Position numbers and translations under genes: made by a program. DNA of 44,419 bases from a virus. The notes under the pieces were generated by a model. The model did no database searches, had not been told where the DNA came from, and saw nothing but the letters and a program-made list of their open reading frames with translations. Below are positions 5,970 through 14,088 of the stretch, piece after piece. Within the stretch, counting starts at the first letter, position 1. Every line of letters starts with the position of its first letter. The DNA lies in the UHGV virus genome UHGV-0384003; one strand, written 5' to 3'.

Positions 5970-6325
5970 TTGATATGACACTATACGAAGAAATTAAACT
6001 TCTTCTAAAAAGAAATGGTATAGAAATCAAGGAAGATGAAGAGTCGTTGTTCGTTATGGAAGTTGATGGCATTCTTGATGATGTTAAACATGTAACGAAT
6101 AATGACTTTGTTGTTGATGGGCAAACTAATTATCCATATGCAATAAAAAAATATGTTGCAGATGTGATCGAATATTATCAACGCCCAGAAGTTAGAAAAG
6201 GATTAAAATCTAGAAGTATGGGGACAGTATCGTACACATACAATGATGGCCTTCCTGATTATATAAGTGACGTGTTAAACAGATATAAACGTGCTAAATT
6301 CCACGTTTTTAAACCCATAAGATAG
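5966..6325 (+). CDS. head-tail connector protein (gp6-like)
   Basis: 119 aa, small acidic protein at the head-tail joining position. Overlapping stop/start with neighbours. Confidence 0.55.
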   Translation: MIDMTLYEEIKLLLKRNGIEIKEDEESLFVMEVDGILDDVKHVTNNDFVVDGQTNYPYAIKKYVADVIEYYQRPEVRKGLKSRSMGTVSYTYNDGLPDYISDVLNRYKRAKFHVFKPIR

Positions 6326-6327
6326 GA

Positions 6328-6666
6328 GTGTTAATCGTGTTCGACCCATACGACGAGTTTCCACATGCTATTTCAAAAGGTCAAATTGAAGTTGTAGGCG
6401 ATTTCAAGTTTAAAAAAGAGCGCTACAAAAGCGAAAAAAATATAAAAGGTTTTATGGATACGCCTACTACTTCAGAACAACTTAAATATCATCAAATGTC
6501 ATCTGAATACGACAGAAACCTATATGTACCTTATGACCTACCAATAAACGATAACGATTACTTTAAATACGAGGGTAAAATCTTTGGTATTGTAGGTGAG
6601 CCTGTAGATCAAGGTGGCCAACATGAAATTAAGTTAATTCGACTTAAAGAGGCACCTTATGGCTAA
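6328..6666 (+). CDS. head-tail adaptor / head closure protein
   Basis: 112 aa, next in the conserved head-tail joining series. Its stop overlaps the start of the next gene. Confidence 0.55.
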   Translation: MLIVFDPYDEFPHAISKGQIEVVGDFKFKKERYKSEKNIKGFMDTPTTSEQLKYHQMSSEYDRNLYVPYDLPINDNDYFKYEGKIFGIVGEPVDQGGQHEIKLIRLKEAPYG

Positions 6667-6888
6667 AGTGAAATATGGTGCAGATAGTTTAGTCGTTGAG
6701 TTGGAACGGTACCAAAAAAATGTCGAGAAGTGGGCAAAAAAAGGTATAGCTAAAACCACAATGAAGATATATAACACTGCCGTAGCATTAGCGCCAGTTG
6801 ACTTAGGATTTTTGAAAGAAAGTATTGATTTCAAATTCACTAATGGTGGTTTGACTGGTGTAATCAGTGTAGGTGCTGATTACGCGAT
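6659..6888 (+). CDS. HK97 gp10-family head-tail protein, exon 1 (interrupted by a group I intron)
   Basis: The reading frame ends artificially at 6925. The conserved gp10 motif ...GADYAIYVEYGTG... resumes in frame at 7859 after a 970-nt insertion. The last exon nucleotide is U (6888). Confidence 0.6.
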
Positions 6889-7858
6889 AAAACGTATGTC
6901 GCAATTACTGGTAACAGTAATTTAAAAATCGGGGTAAATCGGTGGAAGTCTTATCTAAACAGTTGATTACCGAATTCGGTACAGGTATAATAAGCATGAG
7001 GTGATTAACTTGGATAGAAATTCAAAAGGTCAATTTGTTAAAGGTAAAAATATTAGAGATAAAACTGGTAAAAAGTACGGCAGGCTAACTGTTCTAAGCT
7101 TATCTAAAAAACGATCTGGAAGAAAAACGTATTGGAATTGTATATGTGAATGTGGTAATACGGTAGAAGTTAGAAGTGATTGTTTAGGTACTACACTTTC
7201 GTGTGGTTGTCTGAAAAGAGAACAAAATAGAATTAATTTAACTGCTAATCATTCACATAAACAGAGTAGAACTAGGTTATATCACATTTGGCAAAATATG
7301 AAATCAAGATGTTATAACCAAAACAACAAACGCTACGAAAATTACGGTCGCAAGGGTATTAAAGTTTGCGAAGAATGGTTAGACTTTAATGTATTTTATC
7401 AATGGTCTTTGAAATCTGGTTATAACGATACTATGACAATCGAAAGAAATGACATAGAAAAAGGTTATTATCCGGAAAATTGTTGTTGGATACCATTTAA
7501 TGAACAAGCGAATAATCGAAATAGAACTATTTGGGTTGAATGGAATGGTAAAAAACGAAATTTGAAACAATGGTCAAAAGAATTAGGTATTAATTACGGA
7601 ACGTTGAATTCGAGATATAATCGAAGTGGAATGAGACCTCCAGAATTATTTTATCCAGTTAAAAGATAACACCGAGGTAACTTAATAGATTGCGAAAGGC
7701 TGTTAAGCACCGTAGAGCGTACCAGTTGAATAAATATAATACTGGCAAGAGACTCCGACAACCAATAAAGGTTGTCTTTTTTATTGGTTGAAAATGTACG
7801 CCGAACTCACTGGTGACAGTGAGAAGTAGAGGATAAAAAGCCACTACGATAACAAATG
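6889..7858 (+). other. group I self-splicing intron with embedded homing-endonuclease ORF
   Basis: Exon 1 ends GCGAU (6884-6888) and pairs with intron GUCGC (6898-6902), giving a P1 helix with a U.G wobble at the splice site. A P2-like hairpin ATTACTG-gtaa-CAGTAAT lies at 6904-6921. The intron ends in G (7858). It carries a free-standing endonuclease ORF. Exon junction restores ...DYAIYVEYGTGIY.... Confidence 0.55.
7001..7669 (+). CDS. intron-encoded HNH-family homing endonuclease
   Basis: 222 aa. N-terminal Cys-rich zinc-ribbon-like region (CICECG...CGCL). Central YHIWQNMKSRC...YENYGRKGIKVCEEW motif and IERNDIEKGYYPENCCWIPFNEQANNR motif, both typical of phage HNH homing endonucleases. Lies entirely inside the non-coding interruption of the gp10-like gene. 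Confidence 0.6.
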   Translation: MINLDRNSKGQFVKGKNIRDKTGKKYGRLTVLSLSKKRSGRKTYWNCICECGNTVEVRSDCLGTTLSCGCLKREQNRINLTANHSHKQSRTRLYHIWQNMKSRCYNQNNKRYENYGRKGIKVCEEWLDFNVFYQWSLKSGYNDTMTIERNDIEKGYYPENCCWIPFNEQANNRNRTIWVEWNGKKRNLKQWSKELGINYGTLNSRYNRSGMRPPELFYPVKR

Positions 7859-8042
7859 ATACGTTGAATACGGGACTGGGATTTATGCAACAGGTCCTGG
7901 TGGCTCTCGTGCCAAAAAAATTCCTTGGTCCTATAAAGACGCAGACGGTAAATGGCATACTACTAAAGGTCAACACGCTCAACCTTTTTGGAACCCTGCA
8001 ATAGACGCTGGACGTCAAGTGTTCAATAAATATTTTTCATAA
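7859..8042 (+). CDS. HK97 gp10-family head-tail protein, exon 2
   Basis: The in-frame continuation (A)YVEYGTGIYATGPGGSRAKKIPWSYKDADGKWHTTKGQHAQPFWNPAIDAGRQVFNKYFS* carries the conserved YvEyGT and aqPFw.PA motifs of the HK97 gp10 family. It has no start codon or RBS of its own. Confidence 0.6.
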
Positions 8043-8057
8043 AAGGCGGTAAAAAAT

Positions 8058-8480
8058 ATGTGGGTATCGGTTGAACCTGAACTTACAAGTAGATTATACG
8101 AAACATTAAAAACAGACCCTATCATTAACAAATTAGTTGGTGATAGGGTTTTTGATGTCGTTCAAGATGATGTGCGATACCCATATATTGTTGTGGGTGA
8201 GAGCAACGTCACTAATAATGAAAGCAGTGTAAATATGCGCGAGACGGTAGGCATCGTCTTTCATGTGTATTCGCAATATCCAACACAGTACGAGGCCAAG
8301 CTATTAATTAGCGCTATTGGTTATGTGTTGAACAAACCAATTGAAATAGATAATTACGAATTTAGATACAGTCGAATTGATAGCCAATCAGTATTTCCTG
8401 ATATAGATAGGTTTACTAAGCACGGCACAATTCGACTTTTATTTAATTTCAGACATAAAACTAAGAGAGAGGAAGTGTAA
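8058..8480 (+). CDS. tail completion / head-tail joining protein
   Basis: 140 aa, RBS AAAAGGCGG then ATG. Occupies the conserved slot just before the major tail gene. Confidence 0.5.
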   Translation: MWVSVEPELTSRLYETLKTDPIINKLVGDRVFDVVQDDVRYPYIVVGESNVTNNESSVNMRETVGIVFHVYSQYPTQYEAKLLISAIGYVLNKPIEIDNYEFRYSRIDSQSVFPDIDRFTKHGTIRLLFNFRHKTKREEV

Positions 8481-8482
8481 GC

Positions 8483-9016
8483 ATGGCTCAAAAGAATTAC
8501 TTAGCAGTAGTTAGACCAGCTAAAGATAAATTAGATCCAACTGATGCTTTGCTATTAGCTGACTTACAAGAAGGTGGCCACACAATTGAGAATGACTTGG
8601 CTGAAATCATTCGTGGCGGTAAAACAGATTATGGTGTAAATGCCGTTTCTGAAGAGTTTAAACTCACTATCGGTAATATTCCTGGTGACAAAGGAATTGA
8701 ACAAGTTAAAAAAGCAATTAAAAATGGCGAACAACTGCGTGTATGGTTGTATGAACGCAACAAACGTGATGATGGTAAATATCATGGTGTATTTGCCTAC
8801 ACAGTGCCAGAAAGTTACGAAATGTCATTCGACGATGAAGATAATAAAATTGAATTAACGTTAAAAGTTAAATGGAACTCAGCAGAAGGAACTGAAGCTA
8901 ATCTACCACCAGAATGGTTTGAAGCAGCAGGCGCACCTACTGTTGAATACGAAAGTTTTGCAGAAAAAGTTGGTAGCTTTGAGGACCAATCTAAAGCTAA
9001 AACAACGAGTTCTTAA
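8483..9016 (+). CDS. major tail protein
   Basis: 177 aa, directly upstream of the chaperone pair and tape measure. Followed by a strong hairpin/T-run terminator. Confidence 0.75.
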   Translation: MAQKNYLAVVRPAKDKLDPTDALLLADLQEGGHTIENDLAEIIRGGKTDYGVNAVSEEFKLTIGNIPGDKGIEQVKKAIKNGEQLRVWLYERNKRDDGKYHGVFAYTVPESYEMSFDDEDNKIELTLKVKWNSAEGTEANLPPEWFEAAGAPTVEYESFAEKVGSFEDQSKAKTTSS

Positions 9017-12900: not shown

Positions 12901-13133
12901 CTAGTAATTTGACTGACGCATTCAAACCAGAATTATCTACAGACTTAACAGACGGTTTAGGTGGTTCGTTAAATGGCAGTGTGGACGCTCACATGACTAA
13001 AGATGTTAGACATAGTATGCAAGAGAACAATCGCCCAATCGTTAATATAACTGTGCGTAATGAGGGTGATGTAGAGTACATTAAATCTTACATTGAAGAA
13101 CAAAACGGCAAAAACAGTAGTATGGGCTTGTAA
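9921..13133 (+). CDS. tail tape measure protein
   Basis: 1070 aa. Coiled-coil N-terminus, multiple hydrophobic glycine-rich segments and long degenerate internal repeats. Canonical position after the G/GT pair. Confidence 0.9.
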   Translation: MDKNFMVRIMANIRDFQNNVRKAQTLAKTSIPDEIETDVKANISKFQRNLQRAKAMAQRWREHKVEIDGDTNPIKRAISFAKAELQRLRDKQVDIKGDNDNLKRAVISAKVMLASLHDKTVHVNFDTQGMTRAQVLTKALGKSLDEYGNKMDALATKIRTFGTVFSQQVRGLMIASIQGLIPVIAGLVPAIMAVLNAVGILAGGILGLVGAFSIAGAGAFAFGGMAISALKMLKDGTLQATAETRRYQASLDQVKSTWESIIKQNQAQIFNTLANGLNTVNVALSRMKPFLAGVSKGMEQASKSVLKWAENSQTASKFFNMMNTTGVKTFNTLLSAAGRFGDGLVNVFTQLGPLFLWVAQGLDSLGKKFQNWANSVAGQNAIKAFIEYTKTNLPKIGQIFGNVFAGIGNLMVAFAQNSAGIFDWLVKMTGKFREWSEQVGKSEGFKQFVKYVQQNGPVIMQLIGNIVRALVAFGTAMAPIASVILRVVTAFAGFIAKLFETHPAVAKMVGIGMILAGIMWALLAPIIAVGTVLSNVFGVSLLQAIGKIARFMASSNILKGVLNILRGAFSLLVSPIANIGRLLPLLGTAFSALTGPVGIVIGVILALVGVIVYLWKTNEDFRNMIIGAWNGIKDAVSGAISSIVGWFAQLWASIQQTLQPIMPILQQLGQMFMNVLGGLVMGAIQLVIGAFQSLWLAISVIFTAIGGIISAAVQLIVGLFTAFIQFITGDFSGAWQTLQTTVQNVWTTIWNTIVSIFTQISEFIFNTLNSILGTNITSWSQIWSAIVQYVTQIWNSVTQWFGQMAQSVWNKMVQAYNYVVSTGAQWVSSIISTLARFVSSVISGFIRVVSSVASYMAQALSRVISVGAQWVSAIIGAMARFVSGVISGFVNVVSQVQSGMSRAVNTVRNFIGQFVSAGLDLMRGLVQGIMNGMKWVVNAAKNVAQSAVNAAKSALGIHSPSRVFRGIGQYVSQGLGMGILADQHKAVNAVRSVASNLTDAFKPELSTDLTDGLGGSLNGSVDAHMTKDVRHSMQENNRPIVNITVRNEGDVEYIKSYIEEQNGKNSSMGL

Positions 13134-13146
13134 AGGAGTGTTATTA

Positions 13147-14088
13147 TTGATTGCTCACGACATAGAAATAATTAAAGATAATAAAAAGTATAAAGTCAGT
13201 AATAACACTTTTACTGGCTCAGTTTTAGAAGTAGTATCCTATGACGTTAAAGGTTCAGGATATGATCGTGAATACAGTACAGTTAATGGCGCGCAAGGTA
13301 GATTTTTTAACTCTGTCTATGAAGAAAAGAAAACAGTTAGTCTCAGATTGCGATATCAAGTAGACAAAATGGCTCAAGTGACACATCTTAAGTCAAATTT
13401 ACAAGCATTATTACGTGGTCATTATTATTTGCGTGAATTATCTACACCGGACACATCTATTAAATATGAAGATATATTCAACACGAAACCTCAAGAGTTT
13501 GAACTTGATTATGTAGACGGTAGACAAATTTTTGTTGGTCTAGTTAATGCGATTTCAATCGATACTACGCAAACGGCTGGTGAGTTTGAACTTGAATTTG
13601 AAACCATTGAGCTACCTTATTTTGAAAGCATCGCATATAGTACTGATTTAGAAAGGGAAAGTAGAAGTGTTGAAAAATGGGCGGTATCGGATAACTTACC
13701 GTTTAATGTAAATGATAATAAACGTAATTATACTTTCCACGATACAAAAATATGTAATGTTTATTATGCAGGTACGGTTGAAATCAATCGAATTAATCAA
13801 GATAGCTCAGTTGAAGTGACTTTAGCGGAAAACGTATCTAAAAATGATAAAAACGGCACTACTTTTTATATGGTTGAAAGTGGTGATGTTATTAATATCA
13901 AAGGCTTAGAGTTGAAAGCGGGCGATACTATCAAATTTGATGGTATCCACACTTTCAGAAACGGTTTAAACATTGATGCCTATAATGTGGGCCGACGTAA
14001 CCCTACTTTAATACCTGGTTGGAACACGTTCAGAAGTACCAAGTTGATGCAAAAAGTTGTGTTCAAGCACAAAGAATATTATATGTAG
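13147..14088 (+). CDS. distal tail protein (Dit)
   Basis: Follows the TMP. RBS AAAGGAG (13132-13138) then TTG at 13147. The ORF-track start 13093 overlaps the TMP by 41 nt. Confidence 0.65.
   Translation: MIAHDIEIIKDNKKYKVSNNTFTGSVLEVVSYDVKGSGYDREYSTVNGAQGRFFNSVYEEKKTVSLRLRYQVDKMAQVTHLKSNLQALLRGHYYLRELSTPDTSIKYEDIFNTKPQEFELDYVDGRQIFVGLVNAISIDTTQTAGEFELEFETIELPYFESIAYSTDLERESRSVEKWAVSDNLPFNVNDNKRNYTFHDTKICNVYYAGTVEINRINQDSSVEVTLAENVSKNDKNGTTFYMVESGDVINIKGLELKAGDTIKFDGIHTFRNGLNIDAYNVGRRNPTLIPGWNTFRSTKLMQKVVFKHKEYYM

Follow-up and report, generated by a model that had tools for sequence, protein, structure and literature searches.

The group I introns of phage T4 (td and nrdB) and Staphylococcus phage Twort belong to subgroup IA, carry extra helices near P7, splice themselves in a guanosine-initiated reaction, and hold an endonuclease open reading frame (ORF) in a peripheral loop. 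These introns home with co-conversion of flanking exon sequence. The td ORF is located in P6, and the encoded nucleases fall into curated families (I-TevI is a GIY-YIG enzyme; I-TwoI and I-HmuI are HNH enzymes). Here we describe an element of this kind in UHGV virus genome UHGV-0384003, a 44,419-nucleotide stretch of viral DNA (hereafter, the window). Positions 6889-7858 of the window very probably make up a functional, mobile group I intron that is predicted to be self-splicing; it is of phage type IA and has P7.1 as an additional helix. Evidence presented below supports the view that this intron, with an internal gene for a putative endonuclease, splits a tail-completion gene (HK97 gp10 / SPP1 gp16.1 family, 'tail completion/Neck1'). 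The window element differs from td in that its ORF lies in the P5 loop, and from the td, nrdB and Twort introns in that its ORF matches no curated nuclease model and its family escapes RF00028 (Intron_gpI), the group I model of Rfam.

Group I introns with endonuclease genes are well documented in late and structural genes of phages; cases include Twort tmpA, JCL1032 (PMC6669764), and Bacillus cereus prophages, in which tape-measure, terminase and tail-tube genes carry them (PMC2504315). The introns of JCL1032, a Lactobacillus delbrueckii phage, are group I introns proven to splice themselves, in the account of Riipinen and Alatossava (2004) as cited in PMC6669764, and the JCL1032 record annotates the terL coding sequence as a two-piece join. 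Like the window element, the JCL1032 terL intron lies in a late phage gene. The two are 78.8% identical over 85 nt (the P4'-P7.1 stretch) and share the order P3-J3/4(UAAA)-P4-P5-P6(GAAA)-P7-P7.1(UGAACAAAUAUAAU loop)-P3'-P8-P7'-P9(GNRA)-P9.1(AUAAAAAG)-GAUAACA...G. The JCL1032 intron differs in lacking an ORF (~240 nt), in its host gene (terL), and in its P7 (GCAUA/UAUGC versus GCGUA/UACGC in the window). Its splicing was shown experimentally, according to the cited account, whereas the window element is known from sequence.

Introns of B. cereus-group prophages (term-IVS2, TMP and tail-tube) resemble the window element in being of phage type IA1/IA2, in residing in virion or packaging genes, in having stops early in P1/P2, and in carrying an optional endonuclease gene (Tourasse and Kolsto, 2008, PMC2504315); they differ in host gene and in bacterial host. 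An early in-frame stop is a general arrangement in prokaryotic group I introns (PMC2504315). For the terminase intron term-IVS2, Tourasse and Kolsto reported a match of at least 80 nt of catalytic RNA in 'Staphylococcus bacteriophage ROSA', and they gave neither the function of the ROSA host gene nor a structure (PMC2504315). The tail-completion intron of ROSA, which is identical to that of the window at 970 of 970 positions, is probably the element meant by Tourasse and Kolsto.

A tail-completion gene interrupted by a 970-nt insert

The tail-completion gene of the window comprises two candidate exons:

6659..6888, + strand: exon 1 of the tail-completion gene (HK97 gp10 / SPP1 gp16.1 family), codons 1-76 plus the AU of codon 77, last base U6888; PF04883, E=7.4e-07
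7859..8042, + strand: exon 2, the third base of codon 77, then YVEYGTG...FNKYFS and a stop, without a start codon or ribosome-binding site (RBS) of its own

The mechanically called gp10-like ORF (6659..6925) closes at a TAA (6923-6925) and corresponds to an 88-aa truncated product. The rest of the protein is encoded in the frame that opens at 7860 (YVEYGTGIYATGPGG...FNKYFS, in full YVEYGTGIYATGPGGSRAKKIPWSYKDADGKWHTTKGQHAQPFWNPAIDAGRQVFNKYFS) and stops at 8040-8042. This second frame is directly preceded by an in-frame TGA (7857-7859), and inspection of the sequence and the ORF list revealed no in-frame ATG, GTG or TTG until close to its end and no Shine-Dalgarno (SD) sequence. A preliminary description of this DNA had proposed both the premature stop and the resumption in frame without a start codon or RBS, and both hold.

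Joining the exons gives a 137-aa protein with the junction ...GAU UAC GCG AU^A UAC GUU GAA..., or ...DYAI^YVEYGTG... (^ marks the splice junction). The split codon is AU^A (6887-6888 plus 7859), which encodes Ile, so the boundaries at 6888 and 7859 are self-consistent. The predicted ligated-exon junction reads ...GAUUACGCGAU^AUACGUUGAAUAC..., with the predicted junction peptide ADYAIYVEYGTG / ...SVGADYAIYVEYGTGIYATGPGGSR.

Protein families treat the two exons as parts of one domain. Exon 1 alone scores 30.5 bits against PF04883, and the joined protein scores 42 bits over profile positions 6-78 of 78 (cutoff 21.4); full coverage of the model is reached only when the exons are joined. In phrog_5 ('tail completion or Neck1 protein'; E=3.6e-28 for the joined protein), exon 1 occupies profile positions 92-169 and exon 2 positions 170-201, which exactly abut. 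Frame, PF04883 coverage and phrog_5 abutment thus agree with the earlier proposal that splicing restores DYAI^YVEYGTG.

The joined protein also aligns end to end with Sebago gp22 (80% identity) and StauST398-3 gp50. Both of these intron-less homologues are encoded by one uninterrupted gene rather than by two genes. A tblastn search found homologues in 229 phage records, with most of the query in one place in 176 and in two places in eight; the intron RNA is also present in eight phage records.

Exon 2 is open in ROSA and BE28, where it has an identical length and retains the family motifs. Between the window and ROSA, exon 2 shows 15 synonymous and 14 non-synonymous codon differences. For a start-less frame to be kept in this state, it must be translated within a larger mRNA.

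Comparison of the region 6300-8500 with known phages gave 98.3% identity to Staphylococcus haemolyticus phage IME1365_01 and 88-89% identity to Staphylococcus aureus phages ROSA and Rosita, and we assign the window to a Staphylococcus siphovirus. The tail-completion gene at 6659 is flanked by a head-closure gene and a tail-terminator gene, with the same synteny in ROSA, Sebago and StauST398-3.

The insert has the architecture of a phage group I intron

We located a full set of group I helices in the insert and checked every helix pair listed here as canonical in the window. Pairing percentages and compensatory pairs refer to the alignment of relatives described in the next section.

6889..7858, + strand: group I intron, 970 nt, full helix set verified, covariation in 55 relatives, 970/970 identical to phage ROSA
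6884-6889 / 6897-6902, + strand: P1, exon GCGAU(A) with the internal guide (U)GUCGC; the U6888.G6898 wobble marks the 5' splice site
6892-6897, + strand: P10 guide strand ACGUAU, 6 bp with the start of exon 2 (AUACGU, 7859-7864)
6903-6910 / 6915-6922, + strand: P2 hairpin, 8 bp, GUAA loop 6911-6914, stop TAA 6923-6925 directly after
6929-6934 (UCGGGG) / 7753-7758 (CUCCGA), + strand: P3, 5/6 pairs compensatory, 98% of cells paired (a value raised by the search used)
6935-6938, + strand: J3/4 UAAA, always 4 nt (NAAA) in 105 loci among the matches listed
6939-6944 (UCGGUG) / 7670-7675 (CACCGA), + strand: P4, 3/6 pairs compensatory, 100% of cells paired (likewise raised by the search)
6948-6952 (GUCUU) / 7663-7667 (AAGAU), + strand: P5, with J4/5 GAA 6945-6947 and J5/4 AA 7668-7669; the ORF is in its loop
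7676-7677 / 7710-7711, + strand: P6, 100% paired
7681-7688 / 7700-7707, + strand: P6a, C-G-closed GAAA tetraloop 7694-7697, 8/8 pairs compensatory, 99% of cells paired
7715-7721 / 7797-7802, + strand: P7, G7715-C7802, bulged A7716, and GCGUA 7717-7721 / UACGC 7797-7801 (3' strand UACGCC 7797-7802)
7722-7726 / 7741-7745 (CCAGU / ACUGG), + strand: P7.1 hairpin, conserved 14-nt loop UGAAUAAAUAUAAU, 5/5 pairs compensatory, 100% paired
7760-7769 / 7780-7789 (AACCAAUAAA / UUUAUUGGUU), + strand: P8, 10 bp, outer 5 pairs all compensatory
7790-7796, + strand: J8/7 GAAAAUG, precedes the P7 3' strand
7806-7812 / 7817-7823, + strand: P9 hairpin, 7 bp, GUGA (GNRA) loop 7813-7816, 6/7 compensatory, 94% paired
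7826-7832 / 7841-7847 (GUAG.GG / CC.CUAC), + strand: P9.1 hairpin, conserved AUAAAAAG loop, 5/6 compensatory, 99% paired
7858, + strand: omega G, terminal intron base at the 3' splice site

The core is ordered P3-P4-P5-P4'-P6-P7-P7.1-P3'-P8-P7'-P9, and P7 crosses P3 to form the group I pseudoknot. G7715-C7802, the bulged A7716 and G7717-C7801 match the classic guanosine-site pattern, and G7717-C7801 beside A7716 would be the guanosine-binding site. A single extra hairpin between P7 and P3' is a trait of subgroup IA in the Michel-Westhof scheme. The extra P7.1 helix of the window intron agrees with the IA1/IA2 assignment of the related B. cereus prophage introns.

A minimum free energy (MFE) fold of 6870-6935 yields P1 (GCGAU 6884-6888 / GUCGC 6898-6902) together with P2 (z = -3.0), and the in-frame stop for ribosomes translating exon 1 sits right after P2. 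The preliminary description had recognized P1 with its U.G at the splice site, the P2 hairpin (whose extent is 6903-6922), the terminal U6888 of exon 1 and the terminal G7858 of the intron. These hallmarks are all present; the P3-P9.1 core and the 6-bp P10, which that description had missed, complete them.

The last codons and stop of the ORF (AAA AGA UAA) double as the P5 3' strand and J5/4. An alternative P5 register (6951-6956 / 7664-7669) was dropped after comparison across the family showed that the AA of J5/4 is conserved. Anchored on this AA, P5 is 3-8 bp across relatives, modestly above shuffled controls; it measures 5-8 bp in the window-like subfamily and forms a 3-4 bp hairpin in ORF-less relatives.

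The intron belongs to a large phage family with covarying helices

Searches with blastn revealed that the 3' core of the intron resembles non-coding stretches inside split genes of many phages, including terL of JCL1032, SA2 and S-CoN phages, the DNA polymerase gene of Leptolyngbya phage Lbo-JY46, and a gp10-family gene of Clostridioides phage phiCDKH02. We scanned IMG/VR with the core motif GTAGAGCGTA-N-TGAATAAATATAAT-N-CAAGAG and identified at least 119 loci. Related loci carry L labels below (L001, ROSA; L006, BE20; L012-L130, IMG/VR).

Upstream of 105 of the 123 listed core matches lie P3 and P4 strands separated by a 4-nt NAAA spacer. Among the matches listed, the spacer is always 4 nt although 3-5 nt were allowed, and the distance from P4 to P4' is bimodal (22-38 nt or ~700-1200 nt). 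The bimodal distance points to ORF-less and ORF-bearing versions of one ribozyme, with the ORF in L5.

An alignment of 55 distinct sequences was built, 19 of them after excision of the ORF, and the window structure was counted on it. Standard pairs form in 95.4% of cells for the proposed structure, compared to 30-42% for slid controls and 72.7% for shuffles. Changes on both sides are found in 42 of 55 pairs (21-30 for slid controls and 33.4 for shuffles), and the covariation score is 0.623 (0.07-0.11 and 0.19, respectively). P6a, P7.1, P8, P9 and P9.1, none of which was used in selecting sequences, are 90-100% paired, with nearly all pairs compensatory. The ~310 nt of non-coding sequence that flank the ORF are thus a conserved, covarying structured RNA.

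Across L012-L130, L008, L009 and L010, a near-invariant core is formed by GUAGAGCGUA, the P7.1 loop UGAAUAAAUAUAAU, CAAGAG and GGAUAAAAAGCC. Host genes of the family include terL, DNA polymerase, gp10 and others. The minus strand of one viral contig (L066), which also bears a tRNA gene cluster, contains two different group I introns back to back: a member of this family at reverse-complement positions 403-650, missed by Rfam, and an RF00028 match at 13106-13379 (59.9 bits). No second intron or endonuclease paralogue was found elsewhere in the window.

Guide sequences covary with their exons at several insertion sites

In every relative examined, exon 2 comes directly after a G, and the joined exons regain both the frame and the family motif. 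Two relatives (L062 and L089) are inserted at the same site as the window intron. Their exon GCGGU pairs with a guide GCCGU, a compensatory change relative to GCGAU/GUCGC. P10 in these loci is ACGUAC/GUAUGU, the P2 stem is wholly different with the GUAA loop kept, and the joined product reads DYAV^YVEFGTG. More broadly, P2 stems are fully compensatory around a conserved GUAA loop in L062, L041 and L073, and P10 covaries in L062, L073 and L074.

Other relatives occupy different sites in the same gene. In loci of Clostridial or Clostridioides type (L007, L020, L123 and L125), the site is one nucleotide upstream of that in the window, and guides GGGCAU or GCGCAUA match the exons (the L007 pairing is AUGCCU/GGGCAU). 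Their joined products read EYAS^YVEFGH and EYAS^HVEYGH. In other staphylococcal phages (L073, L074, BE20 (L006), L026 and L029), the intron family is found 8 codons downstream (TG[I/V]^YA...), with exon GGGAU and guide GUCCC in L073 and exon GGGGU and guide GCCCC in L074; joined products at this site read TGI^YATKGSR and TGV^YAVGPG. Covariation of guide and exon is thus seen in L062, L007, L125, L073 and L074. At each of these sites, the P1 and P10 guides of the family are retargeted to the exon sequence found there.

Sequence identity points to recent mobility

The window intron is identical to that of ROSA at 970 of 970 positions (5' part 121/121, ORF 660/660, 3' part 189/189), whereas identity falls to 77-80% in the flanking exons and the neighbouring genes. 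The stretch without a mismatch spans window positions 6878-7879 (ROSA, L001, 1950-2951); beyond the intron it takes in 11 nt of exon 1 and 21 nt of exon 2. The intron is nearly identical in IME1365_01 as well. Perfect identity of an intron within diverged flanks indicates recent mobility, in line with the earlier suggestion of a mobile element, and carries the signature of a lateral move, very recent and confined to the intron, across lineages of staphylococcal phages. Such a pattern is the trace expected of homing with short co-conversion tracts. Among intron-less alleles, the closest is that of PMBT9 (85% protein identity), with the site sequence GCAGATTACGCTAT^TTATGTCGAATATGG.

The intron is not annotated in the public records of ROSA (NC_007058), IME1365_01 (KY653129) or BE28 (OQ355704). 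In these records, exon 1 is annotated as a truncated protein ('ORF049', 'capsid and scaffold protein' and 'tail completion'), and exon 2 is either unannotated or, in BE28, a 'hypothetical protein'. In Rosita (PP197657), the sole feature under the match to 7665-7860, which covers the end of the endonuclease gene and the 3' part of the intron, is a 'deoxyuridine 5'-triphosphate nucleotidohydrolase'. This label looks like a mislabel. A literature search, which did not include the ROSA genome paper (Kwan et al., 2005), identified no paper describing an intron in a gp10 or tail-completion gene.

A model for splicing and homing, and its alternatives

We propose that the late transcript would fold into P1-P10, and that a free guanosine, bound at the P7 G-C pair beside the bulged A, would attack after U6888, a base that the U.G wobble keeps in P1. 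P10 would position exon 2, G7858 would replace the cofactor, and the exons would be ligated, such that the full 137-aa protein would be encoded by the spliced mRNA only. Ribosomes on unspliced RNA would halt at the TAA at 6923-6925, after P2 and short of the ribozyme core. The endonuclease, in turn, would cut intron-less alleles during co-infection or in prophages, and repair would copy the intron and a few flanking exon bases into the cut allele. Indirect evidence for such a role comes from the placement of the ORF within an intron loop and from the 970/970 block shared with ROSA amid diverged flanks. The catalysis, the endonuclease activity and the endonuclease target in this scheme are predictions. 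Virion assembly would depend on splicing, an idea supported by the conserved start-less exon 2.

Several points weigh against this interpretation. Splicing in the window phage is deduced from sequence. The essentiality of the gp16.1-like protein is listed as 'n.d.' for SPP1, and a dead intron would therefore be tolerable in principle. P5, which is short and aligned poorly, is the statistically weakest helix. The P3 and P4 5' strands of relatives were located by a search that required pairing, which inflates their paired percentages; neither the 4-nt NAAA spacer nor the bimodal distance depends on that search. P7 does not vary among the 55 sequences, and the scan motif itself contained the 5' strand of this helix; elsewhere P7 does covary, with GCGUA/UACGC replaced by GCAUA/UAUGC in JCL1032, SA2, Lbo-JY46 and a second L066 copy, in which the outer pair also changes from G-C to A-U and the bulge to C. 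Finally, RF00028 matches nothing in the window: the full length was searched at the gathering threshold, positions 6700-8000 at E<=10, and positions 7660-7870 as well.

The preliminary description had named the absence of a covariance-model match as something that would refute the intron, and such a match is indeed absent: Rfam searches of the window and of these two segments returned only chance-level matches (snoU83D, DUF3800-I, Teg49 and mir-73). The same model, however, found nothing in eight related loci including JCL1032 terL, in thirteen ORF-less relatives, or in a compact 401-nt member (E<=10), and ORF-less members of ~210 nt likewise go undetected. It functions as expected on a different group I intron in L066, which scored 59.9 bits. 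Since RF00028 misses the JCL1032 intron and the ORF-less relatives, the negative result for the window is uninformative. According to a 2025 survey, Rfam's model for group I introns is incomplete, and phage variants may escape existing models (PMC11878797). We conclude that the RF00028 miss is a gap in model coverage.

The insert could instead be a decayed, splicing-dead group I relic in a pseudogene, with the phage using the 88-aa fragment or no protein at all. The sequence-based nature of the splicing claim, the 'n.d.' entry for SPP1 and the GenBank records, which annotate the truncated ORF only, would fit such a relic. We nonetheless consider it improbable. All window helices are intact, and the intron is 100% identical in ROSA and near-identical in IME1365_01, two records that were submitted as complete phage genomes. 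Decay would be expected of an untranslated remnant, whereas exon 2 has kept its frame, length and motifs across alleles that are 77% identical, with 15 synonymous and 14 non-synonymous differences. Less probable still is the idea that a free-standing endonuclease gene has split the tail-completion gene into two separately translated halves that assemble in trans without splicing. Genes split by intervening free-standing homing endonuclease genes are known in T4-like phages, and BE28 annotates a separate 'hypothetical protein' over exon 2. Yet exon 2 is preceded by an in-frame TGA and has no start until near its end and no SD, the ~310 nt around the ORF are conserved covarying RNA, ORF-less versions still split genes, and the guides covary with the exons.

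We give least credence, close to none, to an element of another kind (a group II intron, riboswitch or small RNA) or to recoding such as translational bypassing. The lack of any Rfam family match could be taken in favour of these possibilities, but the topology is specifically that of group I (P3/P7 pseudoknot, P1 U.G, P10 and omega G), and the insert contains no reverse transcriptase and no group II domains, on which grounds a group II intron was rejected. To our knowledge, T4 gene 60 (50 nt) is the only well-studied bypass, and the 970-nt gap is about 20 times as long. An intein was likewise rejected, as the insert is out of frame and has its own SD. A self-splicing, mobile group I intron is therefore the interpretation that we favour.

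The intron-encoded ORF

The following features were identified in the P5 loop:

6963..6991, + strand: promoter-like site TTGATT-17-TATAAT, 10/12 consensus matches, -10 conserved in BE28, upstream of the endonuclease SD
7010..7669, + strand: putative homing endonuclease, 219 aa from TTG 7010, SD GAGGUGA 6998-7004; the mechanical ORF starts at GTG 7001

The ORF had been described as a 222-aa HNH endonuclease (7001..7669). The ORF does exist, but GTG 7001 lies inside the SD, and TTG 7010 is thus the more likely start. TTG 7010 lies 5 nt after the SD and is the start annotated in ROSA and IME1365_01. Given the promoter-like site, transcription of the endonuclease gene may not depend on the late operon.

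Assignment to the HNH family is less secure. PHROG families that match the ORF are labelled 'HNH endonuclease' (phrog_374, E=5e-73). No curated HNH profile matched the ORF (Pfam and NCBIfam) or any of 56 homologues (Pfam), and NCBIfam returned nothing for the ORF. Pfam gave a sub-threshold match to the CapR homology domain (PF21817, 19.3 bits versus a cutoff of 24.2), and 34 of the 56 homologues match PF21817 at E<=1, the one domain that Pfam returned for this set. Sequence and profile searches of the PDB returned nothing for the endonuclease or for the spliced gp10-like protein, and a Foldseek search against the PDB gave nothing significant. Homologues number more than 950 and, where named, are called 'hypothetical protein' or CapR homology domain.

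An AlphaFold model of the ORF (pLDDT 90.9) has three parts: an N-terminal beta-rich domain with a Cys cluster (CxC...CGC), a beta(142-146)-beta(158-162)-alpha(163-168) element around the invariant residues R146, Y153, N157, Q166 and N169, and a C-terminal helical region that is helix-turn-helix-like. The beta-beta-alpha element has no invariant His and has an Arg where HNH enzymes have their catalytic His. Among neighbours in BFVD, the names given by depositors vary (HNH, AP2/ERF, HTH homing endonuclease and PVL ORF-50-like). The HNH label thus comes only from a PHROG name and a weak fold match, and on the model a homing endonuclease with a core like that of the His-Me finger is plausible.

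Netter et al. (2021, PMC8096241) describe the CapR domain of phage homing endonucleases as a putative zinc-finger module for DNA binding. The window ORF resembles PLE CapR and the ICP1 CapR-domain homing endonucleases in its N-terminal Cys-rich (CxC...CGC), beta-rich domain and its weak PF21817 match. The ICP1 proteins differ in having a C-terminal domain of the T5orf172/GIY-YIG type in place of the beta-beta-alpha element and helix-turn-helix-like C-terminus. Judged by its model, the ORF may represent an uncharacterised homing endonuclease family (CapR-like zinc ribbon, beta-beta-alpha and C-terminal helix-turn-helix) rather than a canonical HNH enzyme.

Downstream of the ORF, a terminator-like hairpin (GACAACC/GGUUGUC followed by six U, 7757-7782, + strand) lies across P3'/P8, in competition with the 10-bp P8. 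The window-like subfamily retains both pairings. Among the matches listed, a hairpin-plus-U-run P8 is found in 14 of 29 distinct ORF-bearing relatives and in 3 of 50 ORF-less ones, counts that are phylogenetically non-independent, and it occurs in at least three different sequence designs. The competition between this hairpin and P3'/P8 may act as a functional switch that couples termination of the endonuclease transcript to ribozyme folding. We regard these two readings, the switch and the uncharacterised endonuclease family, as rather unlikely.

Implications for phage genomes

The novelty of this locus is a well-supported intron in a tail-completion gene; the kind of element is known, its mechanism is not new, and these findings leave unchanged the understanding of how group I introns work. 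For annotation, the true product in ROSA, IME1365_01, BE28 and the window would be the 137-aa protein encoded by the joined exons. For detection, a widespread family of phage introns escapes Rfam screens. As the family is invisible to RF00028, surveys based on this model under-count phage introns, and group I introns in phage structural genes may be substantially under-counted.

The locus further appears to be a clear-cut case of recent homing between lineages of staphylococcal phages, the two carriers of the intron being an S. aureus phage and a phage 98% identical to S. haemolyticus phage IME1365_01. The same intron family occurs at two sites 8 codons apart in one small gene.

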